From Escherichia phage phiKP26: a DNA stretch of 47,285 bases. The position numbers and the translations under genes are program-made. Positions 8,537-32,348 of the stretch are shown piece by piece. Position 1 is the first letter of the stretch. Each line of letters begins with the position of its first letter. Under the pieces are notes generated by a model. It ran no database searches. It was given only the letters and a program-made list of their open reading frames with translations, and was not told the DNA's origin. Where the stretch lies: the sequence record KC579452; one strand, 5' to 3'.

Positions 8537-9004
8537 ATGGCAATTCGTCGTCAAGCTACTGCTGGTATGGTTGCAGATACCTCTCTGTACAATATTGATG
8601 GTGCCTGTGTAACATCTTCGGCTCTCGTGCGCAATGTTGGCACTGCTGTTGGAGTTGGTTCAGTTGTTGATGGTCACAAGGTGCTGGTAGCCCCGGCATC
8701 TGGTAACGTTTACGGCGTCCTGGTTAAGTCACACTATGAAAGCCCTCGCGGTTCTTACGGTGGCGCTGTTGGCAATGTCGACAACTTCTCCGTGGCTAAC
8801 GTAATGACTCACGGTCGAATCTGGATGGCAACTAGCCTTTCAGAAGCGCCTGCATTTGGTAGCGCCGTTACCGTTGATGCCAATGGGTTAGCAACAAGCG
8901 GTGATGCCTTAGGTACTAACTGGACATTCGCAGGTGGATTCCAGGCAGCTGATGCCGCATCTGGAGAACCAGCGCTCGTTGAAGTCCAGGTCATTCAGAA
9001 GTAA
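8537..9004 (+). CDS. putative head decoration / capsid accessory protein
   Basis: 155-aa Gly/Ala/Val-rich ORF in the head module, followed by a terminator. Confidence 0.4.
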   Translation: MAIRRQATAGMVADTSLYNIDGACVTSSALVRNVGTAVGVGSVVDGHKVLVAPASGNVYGVLVKSHYESPRGSYGGAVGNVDNFSVANVMTHGRIWMATSLSEAPAFGSAVTVDANGLATSGDALGTNWTFAGGFQAADAASGEPALVEVQVIQK

Positions 9005-9022
9005 TTATCACCTCCAAATCAA

Positions 9023-9045
9023 ACCTCCTTCGGNAGGTTTTTTAT
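9023..9045 (+). terminator. rho-independent terminator
   Basis: acctcc-ttcg-gNaggt hairpin followed by a T-run. Confidence 0.65.
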
Positions 9046-9097
9046 TGCCTGTTTTCTGTTAGACTGTCAATGATCATTAACCAATCAGGAGATAGAA

Positions 9098-10543
9098 ATG
9101 GCTTACACAGAAATTGCTATGGCAGTAGGGAATTCACCTGAAATCTTAGCCAGGANCGTAAAAGTGATGATGTCATCAGGCTTTCAGCCATATGGTGATG
9201 TGCAGATGCTAAGCGGCACCCTCTTTGGCATGAAGATGGCGAAAGGAACAACAAACAACGTTGAAGACTTCATGGTTACATCCGACACCACAATTCAGGG
9301 GCTAGTTAACAGGGTTAACCGATATCTAGCGCAGGGCTGGAAAAGGTTTGGCAATGCTCACTTCGAGGATGGCGCTTATATTTCAGCTCTGGCTAAAGGT
9401 GATTTTGCAAGTGATGAAGNAGGGGGTTCAGGTGAAGCAGGTCCACAAGGTCCGGTTGGTCCGCAGGGTCCAGCAGGTCCCGCAGGCGAAGCTGGTCCGC
9501 AAGGCCCTCAAGGTCCAACTGGTGCAACTGGCCCAGCAGGTGCGGCAGGCGCCAAAGGTGACACTGGTCCGGCAGGCCCTGCAGGCCCGCAAGGTCCTCA
9601 AGGCGAGACTGGAGAAGCTGGTCCACAGGGTCCTATGGGCCCAACAGGTGCAACAGGTCCGGCTGGCCCAAAAGGTGATAAAGGTGATGCAGGTCCAGTT
9701 GGTCCGGCAGGCTTGACATTCCGTGGGGTGTACGACGCAGCGACAGCTTACGTTAAAGATGATGTTGTTACATTCAATAACTCCAGCTGGTTTGCTACCA
9801 CTGCTGTTACCGGAGAGAATCCAGATGTTAGCGATTCCTGGGAATTGCTGGCTGCACAAGGCGCCCCTGGCCCACAAGGAGCAACCGGTCCAGCAGGCCC
9901 GACTGGCCCAGCAGGCCCGGCTGGCATTCAAGGTCCTCAGGGAGAAAGAGGCCTTCAGGGTGAGCAGGGTCCGACAGGTCCGCAAGGCTTGCAAGGTGCA
10001 GCAGGTGCAGTCGGGCCTCAAGGCCCAGCAGGTCCTCAGGGTGAGCCAGGAATACAGGGTCCTGTTGGCCCTCAAGGTCCAATTGGCCCTAAAGGCGATA
10101 AGGGAGACCCGGGAATATCAAGAACCTTCATGAAAGTTAAANCATCGCCTGATGTTGGCACTAATCATATGTTAAGACTACCAGCTCCTCTTAACAACCT
10201 ATCTGTTGGTATAAGGCTTGATTCAACAGTGCTTTTTAGCATTAGAGCCTGGATTGATGAGGGAAGCACTGCCAGGAACATAAGAGGTAATATTGAGGGC
10301 TTCAATAATACAGATAACTACTTCAATACAACAGTAAGGACAGCAATATCTTCATCTTCCGTAACTGGAACAGCATTGGTTACTGGCATTGGTGAATTTC
10401 AAAGAATAAGGCCATATGTTTTTAGCTTTTATGAAACCACAACAGGAACGGCGTGGAGAGTAACAATAAATCTATTTACAGTCGGTTATGTTGTGAGCGA
10501 CAATCAAGACCTGTGTATAGAAGTTGTAAGGCTTGATGCATAA
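9098..10543 (+). CDS. collagen-like repeat protein (two G-X-Y blocks, globular N- and C-terminal domains)
   Basis: 481 aa; two long Gly-X-Y runs ([17 protein letters not shown]...) separated by a ~45-aa non-collagen linker; C-terminal beta-rich domain. Confidence 0.8.
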
Positions 10544-10568
10544 AATCAATAGAGAAATGATTACTCTA

Positions 10569-10596
10569 TTGTTCCAATTAAAATCTCGTGTATAAT
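10569..10596 (+). promoter_or_regulatory. sigma70-like promoter candidate for the major capsid gene (TTGTTC-N16-TATAAT)
   Basis: Perfect TATAAT at 10591-10596 with a -35-like TTGTTC 16 bp upstream; preceded by an 8-bp-stem hairpin (caatagag...ctctattg). Confidence 0.4.
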
Positions 10597-10634: not shown

Positions 10635-11582
10635 ATGACTATCAAACTTGACGCTTTCGAGCAAGAAAAGATCACTAACCACCTGCGAGCCATGGGCGTT
10701 GATAAGGCTGATGCAGCTGGTATCTGGACCGTGAAGCAGCTCACCGCAAGCCTGAATAAAGCTTACGAAACCGAGTACGACCAGAACTCCGTGGTAAACC
10801 TGTTCCCTGTAAGCAATGAAATTCCTGGCTACGCTAAGTACTTTGAGTATCCGGTATTTGATGGCGTTGGTATTGCTCAGATCGTGGCTGACTACACTGA
10901 TGACCTGCCGCTGGTTGATGCTTTGGCAACTGAACGTCAGGGTAAAGTTTNCCGTTNCGGTAACGCGTTCCTGATTTCCATTGATGAANTTAAAGTTGGT
11001 CAGGCTACCGGTCAGTCTCTGTCTACTCGCAAGCAGTCTCTTGCTTTCGAAGCTCATGACAAGCTGCTTGATAAACTGGTGTGGTCCGGCTCTACTGCTC
11101 ACGGCATCCCGAGTGTGTTCGACTACCCGAACATCAACAACGTTGTTAGCGGTGGTTCATGGTCTCAACCAACTACAGCAGTAAGCGATATTACAAGCCT
11201 GCTGGATATCATTGAGACTTCAACTAATGGTCAGCACCGTGCAACTCACCTGCTTCTGCCTACTACCGCCCGTCGTATTATGCAGAACCTGGTGCCTGGC
11301 ACTTCTGTTAGCTACGGTGAGTTCTTCCGTCAGAACAATAGCGGCGTAACCGTTGAGTTCGTTCAGTACCTGAATGATTACAATGGCACTGGTACCTCTG
11401 CAGCTATCGCTTACGAGAAAGACCCTAACAACATGGCAATCGAGATTCCGGAAGCGACTAACGCACTGCCGGCTCAGCCGCGCGACTTGCACTTCCGTGT
11501 TCCGGTAACTTCTAAAGCAACCGGTTTGATCGTGTTTAGGCCTTTAACTATGGCTGTCATGAAGGGCATTACTTTTGCTTAA
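10635..11582 (+). CDS. major capsid protein
   Basis: ~316 aa (MTIKLDAFEQEK...) with a strong upstream promoter and a terminator immediately downstream; head-module position. The ORF track start at 10596 is probably 5' UTR. Confidence 0.65.
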   Translation: MTIKLDAFEQEKITNHLRAMGVDKADAAGIWTVKQLTASLNKAYETEYDQNSVVNLFPVSNEIPGYAKYFEYPVFDGVGIAQIVADYTDDLPLVDALATERQGKVXRXGNAFLISIDEXKVGQATGQSLSTRKQSLAFEAHDKLLDKLVWSGSTAHGIPSVFDYPNINNVVSGGSWSQPTTAVSDITSLLDIIETSTNGQHRATHLLLPTTARRIMQNLVPGTSVSYGEFFRQNNSGVTVEFVQYLNDYNGTGTSAAIAYEKDPNNMAIEIPEATNALPAQPRDLHFRVPVTSKATGLIVFRPLTMAVMKGITFA

Positions 11583-11629: not shown

Positions 11630-11652
11630 GTCTAAAGAAANGTGGAGGGGTT

Positions 11653-12118
11653 ATGATTAAGGTAAANGACATAATTGATCTTATAAATGTTGATAGTGAA
11701 AGTGGGGTGATAACATGGAAGCTCAGGGATTCAGGGAGGAAGCAGTGAAATACAAGGTTTACCGGTAAGNGGAGAGACAACGAGTTCATGGGTAGATAGG
11801 ATGATATGGAAAGTTGTTTATGGTGTAATACCTAAGGAGAGAGAGATAGATCACTGAAACATAGAATGATCGAAGAACTCATTATCAATGATTTAGGTGT
11901 GGAAATGAGGTCAGATCAGATNAAACAAAGACTGAAAGACCAACAATACATCTGGGTATAAAGGTGTATCATACTTTAAGCAAACCGATAAGTTCAGGGC
12001 GAGAATAATGCATAATGGTAACGACATGCATATAGGTTACTTCGATACAGCTGAAGGCGCTCACCGGGCCTACATGTTAAAGCAGGCAGAGTTGTGCGGT
12101 GAGTTTGCTAGAGGGTAG
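11653..12118 (+). pseudogene. HNH homing endonuclease with AP2-type DNA-binding domain, disrupted by frameshifts and stops
   Basis: Four frame segments read in order: MIKV.DIIDLINVDSESGVITWKLRDSGRKQ / GETTSSWVDRMIWKVVYGVIPKEREIDH / EELIINDL... / SGYKGVSYFKQTDKFRARIMHNGNDMHIGYFDTAEGAHRAYMLKQAELCGEFA (AP2-like). Confidence 0.6.
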
Positions 12119-12160
12119 CTATTGAGATATAATCAAACAATCGAAACAAAGGAGGAATAA

Positions 12161-12406
12161 ATGAAACTGTTACATAAAGGTGCTTGTGTTATCCGTCTTG
12201 GCGCAAAAGATTATCTTCCAGGCGACACTATCGAGGTTGAAGAGTTATCAGTTGGATTAAAGATTCTGGTAGCTGAAGGTAAGCTTGAGGTTGAGGATGA
12301 CCACAAGGCAACTAANGAAATCGAGCAGGAAGTTAAAGCCAAGGCTAAGCCCAAGAAGCAACCAAAGACTATTGATGAAGCTGAGAATGGCGGCGACTAC
12401 AAATAA
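12161..12406 (+). CDS. hypothetical structural-module protein
   Basis: 81-aa ORF with RBS (aaggagg), followed by a terminator-like hairpin. Confidence 0.45.
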   Translation: MKLLHKGACVIRLGAKDYLPGDTIEVEELSVGLKILVAEGKLEVEDDHKATXEIEQEVKAKAKPKKQPKTIDEAENGGDYK

Positions 12407-21286: not shown

Positions 21287-21335
21287 TTAGTGTAGAATGG
21301 CACAAATGGTTAAACAAACAACGAGGTTATATGAT

Positions 21336-24300
21336 ATGGCCGATTTGCCAAAGATTTATGGAAGCAAGGGTGGTAGCAAGAAGCCGCACACACCTGTAGA
21401 GCAAGAAGATAACCTGATTTCACTAAACAAGATTAAGGTGCTACTGGCTGTAGCTGATGGAGAGGTTGATTCTAGTTTCTCGCTCAAGGATGTTTACCTT
21501 GCTGACGTTCCGGTGCAAAACCAGGATAACTCATTCAACTATGAAGGTGTTACGGCAGAGTTTAGGTCTGGTACTCAGTCGCAGGATTACATCGCAGGAC
21601 TAGATGGCGCAGCTTCAGAGATTCAGGTTAGTCGTGAAATCAATAATGACACACCTTATATCATCGCAGTCAACAACAGTCAGCTATCAGCAATTCGAGT
21701 CAAGCTGTTCTGGCCTCGACTCGTTAAGCAAGAAGAGAATGGAGATTTAAATGGCACAACATGTGAATATGCAATCGATTTATCAGTTAATGGCTCAGCG
21801 TACACTGAGTATATCAGAGGCGTGGCTAACGGTAAAACTACAACAGGTTACGACCGCAGTATCAGGGTTAACTTACCAGCCGAGTTTAGCAGCGCTCTTG
21901 TTCGTATTAGGAAGTTAACGCCAGACTCAACAAATAGCACCCTGGTTAACGGGATGCAGATCACAACCTATCAGGAAGTAATCGATGCTAAATTCCGCTA
22001 CCCTCTTACGGCACTTGTTTACGTGGAGTTCAGTTCTGACCTGTTCCCTAACGGGATCCCAACTATAGCCATTAAGAAAAAGTGGAAACTTATCCGCGTA
22101 CCGACAAACTACAATCCAGAGACAAGGGCTTATAGCGGCACATGGAATGGAACTTTTAAAATGGCATGGTCTGACAACCCGGCCTGGGTTTTATATGATC
22201 TGGTGGTTAGTCAGCGCTACGGATTGGATCAGCGAGAGCTTGGTGTAGAGATTGATAAGTGGGGTCTGTATGAAGCAGCGCAATTCTGCGACCAGATGGT
22301 TCCTGATGGTAAGGGTGGAATGGAGCCGCGATATACTTGTAACGTTGTCATTCAGCAGAAAGTGGAAGCGTATCAGCTTATTCGTGACATCTGTTCTATC
22401 TTCCGCGGTTTAACCTTCTATGATGGTGAGCAAATCGGGATTGTTGTAGACAGGCCGCGCCAGCCAAGCTATGTGTTCACTAATGATAACGTTGTTGATG
22501 GATTGTTTAACAGGACATTCTCTAGCGACAAGAGCCTTTACACGACAGCCAACGTTCAGTTTGATGACGAGCAGAACAACTACCAGCAGGATGTCGAGCC
22601 AGTATTCGACTTAGAAGCAACACGCCGATTTGGTTACAACCCTGTAGACTTGACTGCAATTGGCTGCGTAAGGCGAAGCGAGGCTAACCGTCGCGGGCGT
22701 TGGTTGCTGAAAACAAACCTTCGCAGTGAAACGGTAACGTTCACAACTGGCCTCGAAGGCATGATTCCTATGATTGGTGATGTAATTGCCGTTAATGACC
22801 AGGCTTGGTCAAGCAACTACACATTAAACCTTTCGGGTCGAATTGTTGAAGCTACAGGTTTGCAGGTGTTCGTGCCATTCGCTATTGATGCTGACCCTGG
22901 CGACAGGATTTTAATCAACAAGCCAGATGGGAGCCCAGAGTACAGGACTATCGCTTCAGTATCTGCCGATAAGTTGACGCTTGAACTGAATACAGCATTC
23001 AGCTTCACACCTCAGCCGGATACGGTATTTGCAATCGACAAGCAGAATCTGGCGTTGCAGCAATACGTTGTGACAGGAATTCAAAAAGCAAACACGGACG
23101 GCGAGGATTCATTCCAGTACAGCATCACTGCGGTGCAGTATGACCCGAACAAGTATGACGAGATTGACTATGGTGTGAATATTGACGACAGGCCAACAAG
23201 TATCGTTGACCCTGACAGGATTTTACCACCTGAAAATATCACCGTTACTAGTTACAGCAAGGTAGTTCAGGGCTTAAGCGTTGAGACGATGGTTATTGGT
23301 TACGACAAGGTGCAGTATGCGAAAACATACAACGTACAGTGGCGCAAGAATAACGGCAACTGGATTAACGTACCTGAGACAGCTAATACCGAGGTTGATA
23401 TTGAAGGCATTTACGCTGGCATCTACGACGTCAGGGTTCGCGCCGTAACTGACCAGAAATCAGTGTCGGCATGGTCAGATATCACGACAGTTAGCCTGAC
23501 TGGCAAGATTGGGGAACCTTCGGAGCCGCCTGTAATTACGGCTTCTGATGATGAGGTTTTCGGGATTAGGGTTAAGTGGGGCTTCCCTACTGACTCAGCT
23601 GATACCGCTTACACCGAGCTTCAGCAGGTTCCTGATAATGGTGACGGAACATATACACCGGAGAACGCGTCACTGCTTACGCTGGTTCCGTATCCTCAAT
23701 ACGAATATTGGCACACCACTCTACCAGCAGGTAACGTGAGGTGGTACAGGGCCAGGATTATTGACAGGATAGGTAACGTATCTCCGTGGACTGATTTTGT
23801 CAGAGGTATGGCATCCGATGATGTAAGTGCGATCATTGGTGACATCAAGGTTGATATCGAAAACTCTGATGGTTACAAGTATCTTCTCCAGAACGCCATT
23901 GATGCAAATACTGACATCCAGAATCAGGCCGAAGCTATAATCGAGAACGCCCTGGCAAATGATACTGACGTACGCGTTATGACAAAGGAGAATCTTAACA
24001 GGAAGGCGGAATATCGCCAGGCAGTAAGTTTGATTGCTGATGAAACTCAGGCCCGTGTGGACGCTCTCACGCAGCTTAAAGCGCAGATTGATGATGAGAT
24101 TGTTGGTCAGATTACGACAATTGAAACCGCACTTGCTACGGAGACCGAAGCCAGGGCTACAGCTGATACTCAATTAAGCTCAAGGCTTGGTGATAACGAG
24201 GCGGCTTTGAATCAGAAGCTTGACTCTTATGCCACGGTCGAAGGTGTTGGTGTTCAGTACGGCGTTAAGCTCGGCCTGAAGTACAATGGGGTTGAGTACG

Positions 24301-24722
24301 GCGCTGGAATGAGCATGGAGTTAACTGGTAGTGGTGGAAATGTTCGTAGTCAGTTTATTTTTGATGCTAACAGGTTCGCAATCAGTAACGGCATTAGTTC
24401 TGGTTCCGGTCAGTGGTCGCTACCTTTCGTTGTGGAGAATAACCAGGTGTTCATTCAGAGCGCGGTGATTCAGGATGGTTCAATTACTAACGCGAAGATT
24501 GGTAACAGGATTCAATCAAACAACTATGTTGCTGGTAGTGCTGGTTGGGCAATTGATAAATCTGGTTTTGCTGAGTTAAGTAACGCTACCGTTCGCGGTA
24601 GTTTGTACGCTAACAATGGTAACTTCGCGTTTAACGGAACCAACAATACTGTCGTAATAAACAATAACGGCATAACTGTTAATTTACCAAATGGAGGTAG
24701 GGTAGTGGTTGGAGTATGGTAA
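21336..24722 (+). CDS. tail tip / host specificity protein (lambda gpJ-like)
   Basis: ~1128 aa; N-terminus MADLPKIYGSKGGSKKPHTPVEQEDNL resembles J-family N-termini; position after the I-like gene. Confidence 0.8.
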   Translation: MADLPKIYGSKGGSKKPHTPVEQEDNLISLNKIKVLLAVADGEVDSSFSLKDVYLADVPVQNQDNSFNYEGVTAEFRSGTQSQDYIAGLDGAASEIQVSREINNDTPYIIAVNNSQLSAIRVKLFWPRLVKQEENGDLNGTTCEYAIDLSVNGSAYTEYIRGVANGKTTTGYDRSIRVNLPAEFSSALVRIRKLTPDSTNSTLVNGMQITTYQEVIDAKFRYPLTALVYVEFSSDLFPNGIPTIAIKKKWKLIRVPTNYNPETRAYSGTWNGTFKMAWSDNPAWVLYDLVVSQRYGLDQRELGVEIDKWGLYEAAQFCDQMVPDGKGGMEPRYTCNVVIQQKVEAYQLIRDICSIFRGLTFYDGEQIGIVVDRPRQPSYVFTNDNVVDGLFNRTFSSDKSLYTTANVQFDDEQNNYQQDVEPVFDLEATRRFGYNPVDLTAIGCVRRSEANRRGRWLLKTNLRSETVTFTTGLEGMIPMIGDVIAVNDQAWSSNYTLNLSGRIVEATGLQVFVPFAIDADPGDRILINKPDGSPEYRTIASVSADKLTLELNTAFSFTPQPDTVFAIDKQNLALQQYVVTGIQKANTDGEDSFQYSITAVQYDPNKYDEIDYGVNIDDRPTSIVDPDRILPPENITVTSYSKVVQGLSVETMVIGYDKVQYAKTYNVQWRKNNGNWINVPETANTEVDIEGIYAGIYDVRVRAVTDQKSVSAWSDITTVSLTGKIGEPSEPPVITASDDEVFGIRVKWGFPTDSADTAYTELQQVPDNGDGTYTPENASLLTLVPYPQYEYWHTTLPAGNVRWYRARIIDRIGNVSPWTDFVRGMASDDVSAIIGDIKVDIENSDGYKYLLQNAIDANTDIQNQAEAIIENALANDTDVRVMTKENLNRKAEYRQAVSLIADETQARVDALTQLKAQIDDEIVGQITTIETALATETEARATADTQLSSRLGDNEAALNQKLDSYATVEGVGVQYGVKLGLKYNGVEYGAGMSMELTGSGGNVRSQFIFDANRFAISNGISSGSGQWSLPFVVENNQVFIQSAVIQDGSITNAKIGNRIQSNNYVAGSAGWAIDKSGFAELSNATVRGSLYANNGNFAFNGTNNTVVINNNGITVNLPNGGRVVVGVW

Positions 24723-24728
24723 ATGATT

Positions 24729-24749
24729 AAGCCCCTTTCGGGGCTTTTN
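24729..24749. terminator. bidirectional terminator between convergent genes
   Basis: aagcccc-tttc-ggggctt hairpin followed by T-run; lies between the J-like stop and the probable stop of the minus-strand gene. Confidence 0.65.
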
Positions 24750-24752
24750 CTT

Positions 24753-25724
24753 TNAGTAGAAGTTGGGAATAAATGGAAGTGCCATTGATATGTTTGTATC
24801 AAATGGGAATTGCGCGCCAGTTTGAGTTGAATAGTTACCTATAACAGTGCCTGGGACGGCTCTAACTGAACCTCCAGACATGCAAACACCCTTGTATCGT
24901 AAGTTATTATATCCACCAGTGACTCTAGTTGTCGCTCCGCATCTAAGTATTGGGAAGAACCCACCATTCACCGACTGGTAACCATTATTAATCTGCATAA
25001 ATCCACTTAGAACAAATGGCCTCCTGACGCTAGAGAAAACTATCTGCCCAGCGCTGTTTGATATCGTTAAACCCGGACCAGCTACTGGAGGTGTATTATT
25101 GAAAATAACTAACTGAACGTAAGTACTTGCAGCAACATCATCAATCCCATTGTACGTTATATCCCTACACCATATCGTACTACCATCACTTTCAAGTGAT
25201 ACGTTTNGGTTATCCCATTTACCAAANGGAATGCCGCCAACTGGCAATGATGCAGAGCCATTAACCTGGATGCCACCAACCCAAGCAGCAGTCATTAATC
25301 TGGAATTACTTGATATCGCTGTAAAGTCAGTCGAGTTCTCAACAAGGACACCGGGGCTTGATTGTGATGATGCTGGTAAAATCTCAAAGCACTGACCGCC
25401 AAACTGCAATATGCGACCATTAGCGCCGTTAAAGTTACTTAATGTAATCCTTCNAACCCCATCATTAACCTTCGAGAACCCATTCATGTAATAAACTTCT
25501 GGTATAACATCATATGCATCAACATAAACAGCCTGAGTTGGCAGGCAGAATGCTGTTGAGCCAGGAGTCATAGTCAGACCGAAATCCCATGATGATGCTG
25601 GTGAGCTTAACCCGCTAGTGTTTATTGAACCAGTCACGGCTGGAACTCTCAAGCCAGCTGTAATTTCCATTGCTGGCCTTCCGTCATTCAAATCTATCAA
25701 GATACCTTGAGGCATTATTTCCAC
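24753..25724 (-). CDS. Ser/Gly/Asn-rich beta-rich protein; candidate receptor-binding or tail-fibre accessory protein (function uncertain)
   Basis: ~323 aa; start overlaps the lipoprotein stop. Stop placed at a TNA codon at 24753-24755 just before the terminator; the track end at 24684 reads through an N. Confidence 0.5.
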
Positions 25725-29392: not shown

Positions 29393-29599
29393 GTGAGCGG
29401 CGATTCATTAGCGGTTAATGAGCGCGAACATAATGGCAAGACATATATTACGCTTGAGTTGCAGAATCCTCGATTGATGTTTAGTCAGCGAGGAGGTGAA
29501 TCAGAACAGCAGCAGCAGCGACAACAAGCTCAACAGCAACAGAGACAGCAGCCGCAGCAACAAAGCCGATTTAGTGATGAAGATGATATTCCGTTTNAA
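29393..29599 (+). CDS. ssb: single-stranded DNA-binding protein, C-terminal part only (5' part unresolved)
   Basis: Ends ...SRFSDEDDIPF followed by NAA (probably TAA), the canonical SSB acidic tail; Q-rich linker; the OB-fold region upstream is broken by stops and Ns. Confidence 0.55.
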
Positions 29600-29608
29600 T
29601 GCAAAAGA

Positions 29609-29632
29609 TAAAGCCCCTTTCGGGGCTTTTTN
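29609..29632. terminator. bidirectional terminator between convergent ssb and tailspike genes
   Basis: aagcccc-tttc-ggggctt hairpin with a T-run on the plus side and an A-run on the other side. Confidence 0.7.
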
Positions 29633-32348
29633 ATTGTGACGTTACATCACCATTCAAACTCAAAANTACTGATTGTTTNGTCAAATCAACACCACCTTTA
29701 AGCGAATAGTATCTTGAAGCGCAATAATCAGACTCATCTGAATAGCTGCCAACGTAAACACCAAAGCCATATCCAGAGCAAGCTACATCACCAGCGCCTT
29801 GACCTGAATACATGGTTACATAGTTACCAGCTGTTGTTAGTATAGGTCTGACATCAATATCTATATACTGAGAATCAAATGACCTTCTAACTCTAAATCC
29901 AGTATTCAGGTTTAAGATGCTCCACCAAACCTTACCAGATACATCAAAACCAAGAGCAATATTGTAAGTACCACCATTGACCATTCTTGATGAGACTGGC
30001 AACACACCTGATAAAACTCTTGTTTCACCTGATGCTGATATTAACAATGAGACACTGTGTTCTCCTGATGCCATCACGTTATACTGCAAGTAAAGAGCAT
30101 TACTATTAACTCCAAAACCAGTCCCTATAGCTATAAGGTTAAAGTCTTCAGCAACAGTTATGGTCGGCGATATATTGCATGTAGCGGTGAAACCTAGTGA
30201 CGGGTCAAATCCAGTGCATATAATCTTATCTTTATTTGCCTGTGAAAGCCTTAGCCAATATTGCTGCCCAACTGATGATGCCGCTGCGGCGAATACTGGT
30301 GTATTAGAGACCCCATCAAAAGCTGAAGTGTCGTTTGCTGGCTTAATTCTTGTCTTCCTTTTGTCTATCAGTCCGTTTATCTTCAGGTTTCCTGAATACT
30401 CAGCAACATAGTTAGTGTCCCCTGAGAAATTTGGGCCAAAGTAACCAGATTCAACAACCCCATCGATCACAACATCAGATCTTGAGTCAAGGAATCTGAA
30501 GTTGCCAGCGGAAGTTGGCCTTCCATCGCCATTGTTAGATACATAGTTAAGCCCAACAAAACCATAGATTCTTACAGAGCTATTTGAAAACGAAACGTTA
30601 TAATCTCTGTAGTTTGAGTTTATGCTGTTCCTGTTACTATTTAATCCATTAAATACCACATTTCTAGAGTTTACAATTCTAACACCGTCACCACCGCAAT
30701 CCTGCGCCTCTATAGCTGACATGGTGATGTTTTGGCAGTTATCAATCAGGATGCCATAAGCATCATCAAGCTCATTATAAGCCGACCAACCCGACCAAAT
30801 AAACTTACCGCCAACAATCCTACAGTTTCCGGCATTCCTAAGTATTAGACAATTTCTTCCACAGGTGTTTACCTGTATGTTATTCCATGTGAAGTCTGTT
30901 GTTTCGTTAATCAATCCGCCTTTTTTNATGTGCTGAATAAGAACATCATCAAGAACAGGAGAGTAGTTACCAGCAGCAACGAAAATTCCGTAAACATCAA
31001 ACCCAGCAATGTGAGTGTTTCTTATCGTTAAGTCCCTCCTAGGGTCAGCACCAGTGTTGAATGGGTAATTGGTTGATAACCCAGTCGGCGTAGGGATGTA
31101 AATCCCAGCAGTACCATCAGTAAACGCCGTGTCTTGCTGGGCTCCAGTGCCGTAAAGAGCAATACCTTCAATATGAATGAGCGAGCAAGAATCAGAAACC
31201 TCAATTAAAGAGCCAATTGATGAACTAAGCTGAGTTATTCTTGACTTGTGCTTGCCAAAACCAATTATAGAGCAAGATTTATTTCTCATTACCAGGTTTG
31301 ATGCCATGTAGTCGCTATCAAGCTTTAATGCCAGCCCGGAGTCTAGGATTTGCTGTATCTGTGTCGTTGAGTCTGATGTCGATGACTTAATGGCCCCAAG
31401 TTCGCAAGGCGACAGCTCCCCGCTACAGATTCTTTCCCAGTAATAACCTGTACTTGATTCAAAAACCAATCCTGAAGATAATCCATATGATAAAGATGAC
31501 TCCGGCTTACAAACAAAGAACCCACCACCATAACCAAGACCACCAATGTAAGAATCACAATAGACAACCTCTAAGTCATAAATTCTGGCAGAGTTTGTCA
31601 TTGCTGATACTGATTCAAACCTTCTTGTGTAATCCTGTTGAATCCAAAAACCAACTCCAATACCACCTGTAGACTGTGGTGATGAGTTTTGTGGTATGGA
31701 TTTTGGAACGCTACCAGACCAGTAATAAACCGAAACATGATTGTCATTAANGTAAATTGCAGGCTGAGTTCTTGAGTTTATTTCTCCACCATTTGAGAAA
31801 TCAACTACAAGAGCAGATGACACAGAAGCCGCAGCAGAGCTTGCTATTGTAGCTGAAGAGGAAGCCGAGTTAGCGCTACTTTCAGCTAACTGCCTATCAG
31901 AAGATACCTGATCTTTGTCAGAAGAAACTTGAGCAGCATCAACAGCAACTTGCTGAGATTGCATGTTGACATTATTTACGCTTTGCTGGAAAGAATCAGA
32001 ATCAAATTGATTAAAAGCATCAACTGCCGCTGCAACCTCTGTTTCACGGGACTGATAATAACGAAGTGTCTCAGCAACGTCCTGAGCAAGACCTTGGACA
32101 GTAATTCCGTCATGAGCAAGGATTGAGTACTGAGTCCCAGCTGGCGCAGTAAAACCTTTATCATTGAATACACGAATCTCTGTATCGCTTAAAATCTCAG
32201 CGATAGTAACAATGCTTGTCGGGGTGGTGTTAAAAATCATTGTTGCGCCAACTCGGATTAGCGTTAGTGGTTGCCTCCACGTGGTGCCAACACCAGTTAC
32301 AGTTCCGTCAGCTGCAAGCGATGCAGTTCCAGCGTCATAAATTGCCAT
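29631..32348 (-). CDS. tail fibre / tailspike protein with probable beta-helix (depolymerase-like) central domain
   Basis: ~905 aa; N-terminal fibre-anchor-like domain, Ser/Ala-rich linker, long Asn/Gly/Ser-rich repetitive beta region; stop placed at a TNA codon at 29631-29633. Confidence 0.65.

Follow-up and report, generated by a model that had tools for sequence, protein, structure and literature searches.

A collagen-like protein with a tandem DUF1737 anchor as a candidate accessory head fibre of Escherichia phage phiKP26

What is a gene for a long collagen-like protein doing among the head genes of a phage? The question is raised by the 47,285-nucleotide (nt) sequence of Escherichia phage phiKP26 (record KC579452, one strand; hereafter the window), in which an open reading frame (ORF) with an ATG start at 9098..10543 (+) codes for a collagen-like protein of 481 amino acids (aa) between the genes for the capsid cement protein and the major capsid protein. 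Database labels for the gene are at odds with each other: ‘putative DNA polymerase I’, ‘tail fiber protein’, ‘collagen-like protein’ and ‘hypothetical’. We think it probable that the gene codes for an accessory head fibre: a trimer seated on a tandem-DUF1737 hexon plug, with a stalk of ∼55 nm and a swappable binding tip.

The protein is 98.9% identical to gp03 of Escherichia phage C119 (Drexlerviridae, Rogunavirinae, Rogunavirus), and the region as a whole is 99.7% identical to that phage. An N-terminal region (aa 1-108) is followed by collagen, an insert, collagen again and a C-terminal domain of 140 aa. A first-pass annotation, made from the letters of the window, had described a 481-aa ORF with two Gly-X-Y blocks, a linker and globular ends, and this build was borne out; its 33 triplets in block 1 were found as well, while block 2 has 29 triplets rather than about 26, and the separating linker, put at ∼45 aa, is an insert of 47 aa. 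The parts of the gene are as follows.

9098..10543, + strand: coding sequence of the collagen-like (candidate fibre) protein; equals C119 gp03 and is the orthologue of Rogue1 gp21
9087..9091, + strand: Shine-Dalgarno sequence AGGAG, 6 nt before the ATG, read directly in the sequence
9098..9247, + strand: DUF1737 unit 1 (aa 1-50), predicted capsid-binding anchor; from hhalign against phi24B gp84
9248..9409, + strand: DUF1737 unit 2 (aa 51-104), second anchor copy; from hhalign against unit 1 and gp84
9422..9718, + strand: collagen block 1 (aa 109-207), 33 Gly-X-Y triplets, ∼28 nm as a triple helix
9719..9859, + strand: 47-aa non-collagen insert (aa 208-254), CBM5/12-like; Pfam CBM_5_12 below threshold
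9860..10120, + strand: collagen block 2 (aa 255-341), 29 Gly-X-Y triplets, ∼25 nm
10121..10540, + strand: C-terminal globular tip (aa 342-481), all-beta sandwich, exchangeable module

Anchor, stalk and tip

The anchor is the part that points to the head. In the Stx phage phi24B, residues 2-57 of gp84 (DUF1737) were seen by cryo-electron microscopy as a hexameric ring in the central pore of capsid hexons, with Tyr42 as anchor; the authors name this DUF1737 a capsid-binding domain, and gp84 gives the second most intense virion band (bioRxiv 10.64898/2026.04.10.717836). We compared profiles by hhalign, using a family alignment made from phage records and an exhaustive HMMER search. Unit 1 (aa 1-50) matched gp84 residues 1-60 with a probability of 97.3% (E 1.9e-11), unit 2 (aa 51-104) matched the same residues with 91.7% (E 7.7e-7), and the two units proved homologous to each other (97.2%, E 2.8e-11). 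The duplication is seen only with profiles; BLASTP of half 1 against half 2 gave no match.

Indexed searches of protein sequences, run with the anchor, with the tip and with an alignment of tips, returned one fragment each; the family is evidently under-represented there, and exhaustive searching was chosen instead. Large HMMER matches made of many stretches (P0004, P0006, P0007, P0009, P0012 and others) were unrelated repeat proteins and were discarded; scans of IMG/VR for the family returned known isolates only.

Pfam agrees with the profiles at the edge of its threshold. With the N-terminal region scanned alone, PF08410 (DUF1737) scored 24.1 bits at aa 68-88 against a cutoff of 24 (E 3.2e-5); on the whole window protein the match is borderline to weak (18.4 bits). 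The domain was matched in seven of nine family members, the Phagiculus homologue reaching 35.5 bits over two stretches. The likeness of the anchor to SPSDLAKRITQKLKEGWQPYGSALI in gp84 can be seen by eye, and the motif ...S-P-x-x-L-A-(K/R)-x-(I/V)...G-(W/F)-Q-P-Y-G is common to both. The anchor is conserved, and it is doubled in every member of the family.

An AlphaFold2 (AF2) model of the anchor (predicted local distance difference test score 87, predicted template modelling score 0.79) shows two successive strand-helix-strand-strand units: strand 5-11, helix 14-26 and strands 30-39 and 42-49 in the first; strand 54-63, helix 66-78 and strands 82-90 and 93-102 in the second. These agree with the ‘helix plus three antiparallel strands’ given for gp84; at the level of prediction, both units appear to have the DUF1737 fold, a helix on a three-stranded antiparallel sheet. 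In BFVD each anchor half matched many proteins of ∼50 aa, several of them annotated as DUF1737, with target-normalised template modelling (TM) scores up to 0.85. In the PDB, Foldseek found no counterpart of the anchor model (best E 0.58).

Two of the BFVD matches are predicted to have the double head: a 282-aa collagen-like coliphage protein of BECP10 (A0A7T7GU87, TM 0.86) and a 262-aa protein of Pseudomonas phage phCDa (A0A2Z5HAH8, TM 0.73), a phage protein listed among the collagen-like matches. Judging from these models, the tandem anchor may extend past the Drexlerviridae examined.

With two DUF1737 units per chain, a trimer carries six, which is the number in the phi24B ring; we therefore propose a pseudo-hexameric plug. 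Trimers of tandem-domain proteins mimic hexamers in other systems. One trimer would sit on each hexamer of the major capsid protein in the mature head, as a pseudo-hexameric ring in the hexon centre.

The stalk is collagen-like. Pfam Collagen (PF01391) was found in the protein with E 1.4e-27, far past chance, and by a regular-expression count both blocks are uninterrupted; Pro fills the X position in 20 of the 33 triplets of block 1 and in 34 of 62 (55%) overall. From such a run of triplets and such a share of proline we infer a homotrimeric triple helix; the three chains would wind into segments of ∼28 and ∼25 nm joined by the 47-aa knot. The insert is conserved in the Sd1, Phagiculus, AugustePiccard and UPEC06 proteins and is a probable knot or hinge. 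Its likeness to CBM5/12 is a resemblance only, since its score against Pfam PF02839 (18.1 bits, E 0.0029) is below the cutoff of 26.2.

The fibre would project ∼55 nm from the head, a length comparable with the 53 nm reported for the Rogue1 head, and would end in a small beta-sandwich tip. At least five types of tip occur across the family, with faint cross-similarity; one of them is 74% identical to the C-terminus of QUL77272 of phage UPEC06 (Vequintavirinae). GC content of the tip is low (38.6% versus 44.4%). A tip swapped between phages would probably bind a variable surface ligand, for example glycans of the host envelope, mucus or environmental glycans, and the fibre would give the head a means of reversible adhesion, not a part essential to its structure.

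Presence on virions and the cement-capsid slot

Is the protein on virions at all? Rogue1 gp21 is ∼85% identical to the window protein, and Kropinski et al. analysed three of the roughly six bands given by purified Rogue1 particles in sodium dodecyl sulphate polyacrylamide gel electrophoresis; the 52.7 kDa band was gp21 (PMC3496638), for which the calculated mass is 48,541 Da and unmodified peptides were reported at residues 2-19, 76-100, 101-209, 285-332, 361-373 and 384-414 (PMC3496638 Table S2). As the peptides spread across residues 2-414, the anchor, both collagen blocks and the tip are all on virions. The protein is one of few visible virion bands, beside the capsid and tail-tube proteins; its collagen nature was not recognised and its location not discussed by the authors, who considered and then rejected an intein (PMC3496638). 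Processing is limited to loss of the initiator Met, and hydroxyproline is missing from the collagen peptides that were observed, as expected for collagens of bacteria and phages.

The first-pass annotation had proposed mass spectrometry of virions, and would have given up its idea if the protein were absent from purified virions and dispensable for every infection phenotype, or if resequencing collapsed the repeat into a shorter ORF. The published data place a full-length orthologue in purified virions, so that the first of these grounds fails for a close relative; the collapsed repeat is answered by the same band (52.7 kDa versus a calculated 48.5 kDa) and by peptides spanning both collagen blocks. 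A literature search found no paper tying collagen to Rogue1, Drexlerviridae or Rogunavirinae.

The position of the gene is as constant as its anchor. Loci with genomic context were available from C119, Rogue1, JK06, phiJLA23, Sd1, the Opt-719 group, Phagiculus, MM01, e4/1c, AugustePiccard and RobRod40, and from the metagenomic contigs L020, L021 and L018. In every one of them the order was a cement gene (PF22758), optionally a GDSL/SGNH hydrolase gene or small ORFs, the collagen gene and the capsid gene (PF09950); linkage to the capsid gene holds even for members with ∼25-30% anchor identity. In SU57 the cement gene is followed directly by a similar capsid gene and the slot is empty, and several further relatives match the query over the capsid gene only. 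The collagen gene is accessory for these reasons.

Length of the stalk varies in the records. The gene of JK06, clean and in frame, has 10 triplets and lacks the insert; the difference is an in-frame loss between collagen repeats. The phiJLA23 record (L013:801-1700) has many ambiguity codes and a frameshift at the collagen repeat, and its 158-aa ‘DNA polymerase’ ORF is a truncated anchor; this short form probably came from assembly collapse. In the Opt-719 group (L003:4467-5978) the annotation divides the gene, within collagen block 1, into two ORFs, the first with the anchor and 22 triplets, the second with the insert, collagen and a third type of tip; behind the split there could be a frameshift, or else an error of sequencing within the repeat. 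The four near-identical genomes of this group are listed with three different hosts.

Other genes were observed in the same slot. GDSL/SGNH hydrolases of 360-430 aa are encoded in Sd1 (gp46, L002:3099-4391), AugustePiccard (bas01_0009, L009:1584-2873) and at L020:3835-4917; they belong to phrog_9703, ‘head decoration’, and are annotated as ‘putative head outer capsid protein’. An enzyme-bearing decoration of this kind would parallel the phi24B esterase. Small ORFs of e4/1c, RobRod40 and MM01 (L008:2485-2874, L010:2329-2874, L011:2312-2872) differ in their N-terminal parts, share the C-terminal motif KKSGWALVKYEEV(D/E)xPE and have no Pfam matches. We considered whether other slot genes also start with DUF1737 and rejected this for the Sd1 and AugustePiccard SGNH hydrolases and for the ORFs of e4/1c, MM01, RobRod40 and Phagiculus (no Pfam matches, hhalign probability <5%). 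Between the cement and capsid genes there seems to be a hot spot for accessory genes of the capsid.

Where the protein is attached: alternatives and known systems

Several points weigh against a fibre docked in hexon centres. The Rogue1 data prove that the protein belongs to the virion, but not that it is on the head; abundance of the gp21 band is taken from the text, which gives no quantification (PMC3496638). The comparison with phi24B has limits of its own. It comes from an unreviewed preprint, in which a T=9 shell is occupied at its flat face-centre hexons only (bioRxiv 10.64898/2026.04.10.717836). The phi24B capsid protein belongs to PF13252 and the one here to PF09950, with no detectable sequence similarity, so that the docking pocket is not demonstrably conserved; the anchor profile alignment stops at gp84 residue 38, short of the loop with the Tyr42 ‘tooth’; and NanS-p is represented in the PDB copy by its catalytic and C-terminal parts alone, with no DUF1737 for superposition. 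Structure matches of the tip are generic (immunoglobulin (Ig)- or CBM-like), a fold that points to no nameable ligand. Finally, PHROGs and RefSeq call the protein a tail fibre, and a related stalk and tip are found in UPEC06, where QUL77272 is encoded with a giant collagen ‘tail fiber’ gene on one side and neck and sheath genes on the other.

Some of these points fit a protein bound to the capsid in another manner, an alternative that we judge unlikely, although it survives better than the others: the site could be different (e.g. near cement trimers at three-fold positions), or the stoichiometry, or the protein could be a stabiliser whose ligand-free tip nucleates trimers. Globular ends of bacterial collagens commonly serve as trimerisation nuclei, and the generic fold of the tip would suit such a role, as the different families of the phi24B and C119 capsid proteins would suit another site. 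A fold similar to DUF1737 decorates the hexon centres of Bas63 as a monomer, one per hexon. In SPP1 the collagen-like trimer gp12, encoded between scaffold and capsid genes, binds the expanded capsid, is non-essential and has no known ligand. However, a stalk of ∼55 nm and at least five horizontally exchanged tips would be needless in a pure stabiliser, and exact duplication of the anchor in every member suits 3 × 2 = 6. In addition, the gene is absent in relatives whose capsid genes are ∼75-79% identical; therefore, the shell is independent of the collagen protein.

As the sizes clearly differ, SPP1 gp12 can be set beside the window protein as an analogue rather than a demonstrated member of one family. 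Both are collagen-like, both are encoded right before the major capsid gene and both are dispensable (here, judging by absence from SU57 and others); gp12, however, has 64 aa with a short collagen motif and neither DUF1737 nor a distal globular domain, in comparison with 481 aa and a predicted stalk of ∼55 nm. T4 Hoc and T5 pb10 are also accessory, dispensable binders of hexamer centres, with Ig-like domains thought to be adhesive (PMC5292684; bioRxiv 10.64898/2026.04.10.717836); they differ in that each hexon holds a single monomer, the anchor folds are unrelated and a collagen stalk is lacking.

A tail fibre or side fibre, with the N-terminal domain on the tail tip or tube and the stalk and tip used in receptor recognition, is less probable still. 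The window protein is a member of phrog_5073 (end-to-end match, E 1.9e-166), labelled ‘tail fiber protein’ in PHROGs and annotated likewise in RefSeq; this label is driven by the collagen repeats and is an annotation rather than a tested function. Collagen stalks with CBM5/12-like inserts are indeed common in phage tail fibres (many ‘tail’ PHROG matches), and swapping of tips is typical for receptor-binding proteins. Nevertheless, no tail or baseplate attachment domain was found in the protein; the only N-terminal domain detected is DUF1737, with capsid binding as its one characterised role. The gene was never seen in a tail module; in all loci its place is between cement and capsid, and regular tail-fibre genes are present elsewhere in the window (a J-like protein at 21297-24722 and a 924-aa fibre at 29571-32348). 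Its place among the few visible virion bands, next to capsid and tail-tube proteins, also speaks against a tail fibre.

The UPEC06 protein, which is encoded beside a tail-fibre gene in a myovirus, is instructive here. QUL77272 shares with the window protein the layout of collagen, CBM5/12-like insert, collagen and tip; it differs in an unrelated 45-aa N-terminus in place of the tandem DUF1737 and in blocks of 51 and 49 triplets. The same stalk and tip on a different N-terminus argue that the anchor decides location.

That the long protein is not real, being a repeat-assembly artefact or a mis-annotated enzyme (‘DNA polymerase I’ in the GenBank records of C119, phiJLA23 and JK06, the last two with much shorter versions), is hardly credible: a Pfam scan of the protein found no polymerase or exonuclease domain, Kropinski et al. 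judged the polymerase label incorrect (PMC3496638), at least 10 phages and metagenomic contigs, sequenced independently, carry the long form, the Rogue1 band and peptides refute it, and the record of phiJLA23, ambiguous and frameshifted at the repeat, is itself the collapsed one. The ‘DNA polymerase’ family phrog_22681 covers only aa 2-133 (the anchor and the start of the collagen), thus the label was merely propagated. We conclude that the ‘DNA polymerase’ label is wrong and that the ‘tail fibre’ label is unsupported by attachment-defining features.

We thus return to the accessory head fibre. The first-pass annotation had offered a capsid fibre or decoration among its readings, and the tandem DUF1737, the orthologue in virions and the strict linkage to the capsid gene, with tail fibres encoded elsewhere, support that choice. 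Like gp84, the NanS-p esterase of phi24B, the protein has an N-terminal DUF1737 anchor followed by an outward payload, and both are abundant in virions. The differences are several. DUF1737 is in tandem here and continues into a collagen stalk with a beta-sandwich tip, while gp84 carries an esterase; a cut behind the anchor is reported for gp84, while the Rogue1 orthologue is full length on virions; the shell is presumably T=7 here and is T=9 in phi24B; and the gp84 gene lies beside stx and lysis genes, the collagen gene in the head module. The DUF1737 fusions described in the preprint are esterases, beta-lactamase-like and isochorismatase-like proteins, with no collagen and no tandem (bioRxiv 10.64898/2026.04.10.717836). 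The new point is the recognition that a tandem DUF1737 anchor is joined to a collagen fibre whose tips can be swapped; the family was already in databases and its presence on virions was published.

The overall design is that of BclA of Bacillus anthracis and other bacterial collagen-like surface proteins, which combine an N-terminal anchor, a variable collagen stalk and a C-terminal globular trimer tip and form a hair-like nap. Anchor and attachment surface of BclA are unrelated to those of the window protein, and its tip is a C1q/TNF-like jelly roll, in comparison with the generic Ig/CBM-like matches here.

One could speculate further. Heads of T1-like phages are presumably T=7 with 60 hexons; duplication of DUF1737 in a homotrimer would resolve the mismatch between three-fold and six-fold symmetry, and a head would bear up to 60 thin fibres, each roughly equal in length to the width of the head and not known from earlier reports. 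The stalk-tip cassette would swap mounts between Drexlerviridae (head-anchored) and Vequintavirinae (differently anchored), which would make the mounting place of an adhesin a swappable property and the capsid a second organelle for binding host or mucus. We offer this larger picture tentatively, and with clearly less confidence than the head fibre as such.

T1-like (Drexlerviridae) coliphages are widely isolated and are candidates for biocontrol and therapy; conflicting gene labels mislead work on host range and engineering. If the protein is a head fibre, the DUF1737 capsid anchor extends to a second payload class, the collagen fibre, and to a second family of capsid proteins, with a simple structural rule (tandem anchor × trimer = hexamer) and a natural plug-in scaffold for display of proteins on phage heads. 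The quickly exchanged tips suggest that heads as well as tails take part in adhesion to cells, mucus and particles, which, if true, would influence adsorption kinetics, persistence in the gut and the pharmacology of phage therapy.

Flanking signals, neighbouring genes and sequence quality

The gene order in the window is portal, Mu-F-like, protease/scaffold (PF09979), cement (PF22758), collagen gene and major capsid (PF09950). The elements next to the collagen gene are listed below.

8537..9004, + strand: capsid cement protein gene, upstream neighbour; Pfam PF22758 Phage_cement, E 1.8e-22
9021..9046, + strand: intrinsic terminator-like hairpin with T-run in the gap between cement and collagen genes; centroid structure of the unmasked C119 sequence
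10547..10571, + strand: hairpin past the stop of the collagen gene, 8-bp stem and 9-nt loop, without T-run; from RNA folding
10569..10596, + strand: possible sigma-70 promoter for the capsid gene (TTGTTC, 16 nt, TATAAT), read by eye
10635..11582, + strand: major capsid protein gene, downstream neighbour and predicted docking partner; Pfam PF09950, E 6.2e-40; phrog_264

An upstream terminator (9023-9045), a downstream promoter and hairpin, and an ‘insulated cassette’ between them had also been proposed in the first reading of the sequence. The terminator is real: in unmasked C119 it reads AAACCUCC-UUCG-GGAGGUUU followed by UUUUAUU, and the automatic scan missed it because of an N at 9034 in the stem. 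Downstream, the hairpin exists, albeit without a T-run, and the promoter is weak: nine of 12 positions match, and the automatic scan made no call. As for the cassette, accessory insertion is confirmed by the empty slot of SU57; a terminator and a promoter as insulation are no peculiarity of the collagen gene. Terminator-like hairpins follow most genes of the structural module (20 found versus 10.5 expected), and a like pattern is annotated in the structural module of MM01.

The window contains 149 N bases, three of which give the X residues 20, 108 and 359 of the 481-aa protein. Those inspected lie at the ends of homopolymer runs (e.g. TTTTTTN, AAAN) and are probably homopolymer-ambiguous base calls rather than masked letters of C119. 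Alternative-frame and antisense ORFs within the repeat (9348-9716 (+), 9723-10133 (+) and 9428-10075 (-); 122, 136 and 215 aa) are by-products of the GC-rich repeat with 9-nt period (27 copies), not genes.

In C119 an HNH endonuclease gene follows the capsid gene. Its counterpart in the window (11650-12180; compare L001:3801-4331) has a 65-bp deletion and a divergent patch of ∼200 bp, with loss of the long ORF, and represents either a decaying homing endonuclease or poor sequence. Farther away, a 345-aa membrane protein is encoded at 24684-25724 (-), overlapping the end of the J-like gene; it belongs to phrog_1265, ‘moron / host takeover’, and may be a gene of the superinfection-exclusion type.

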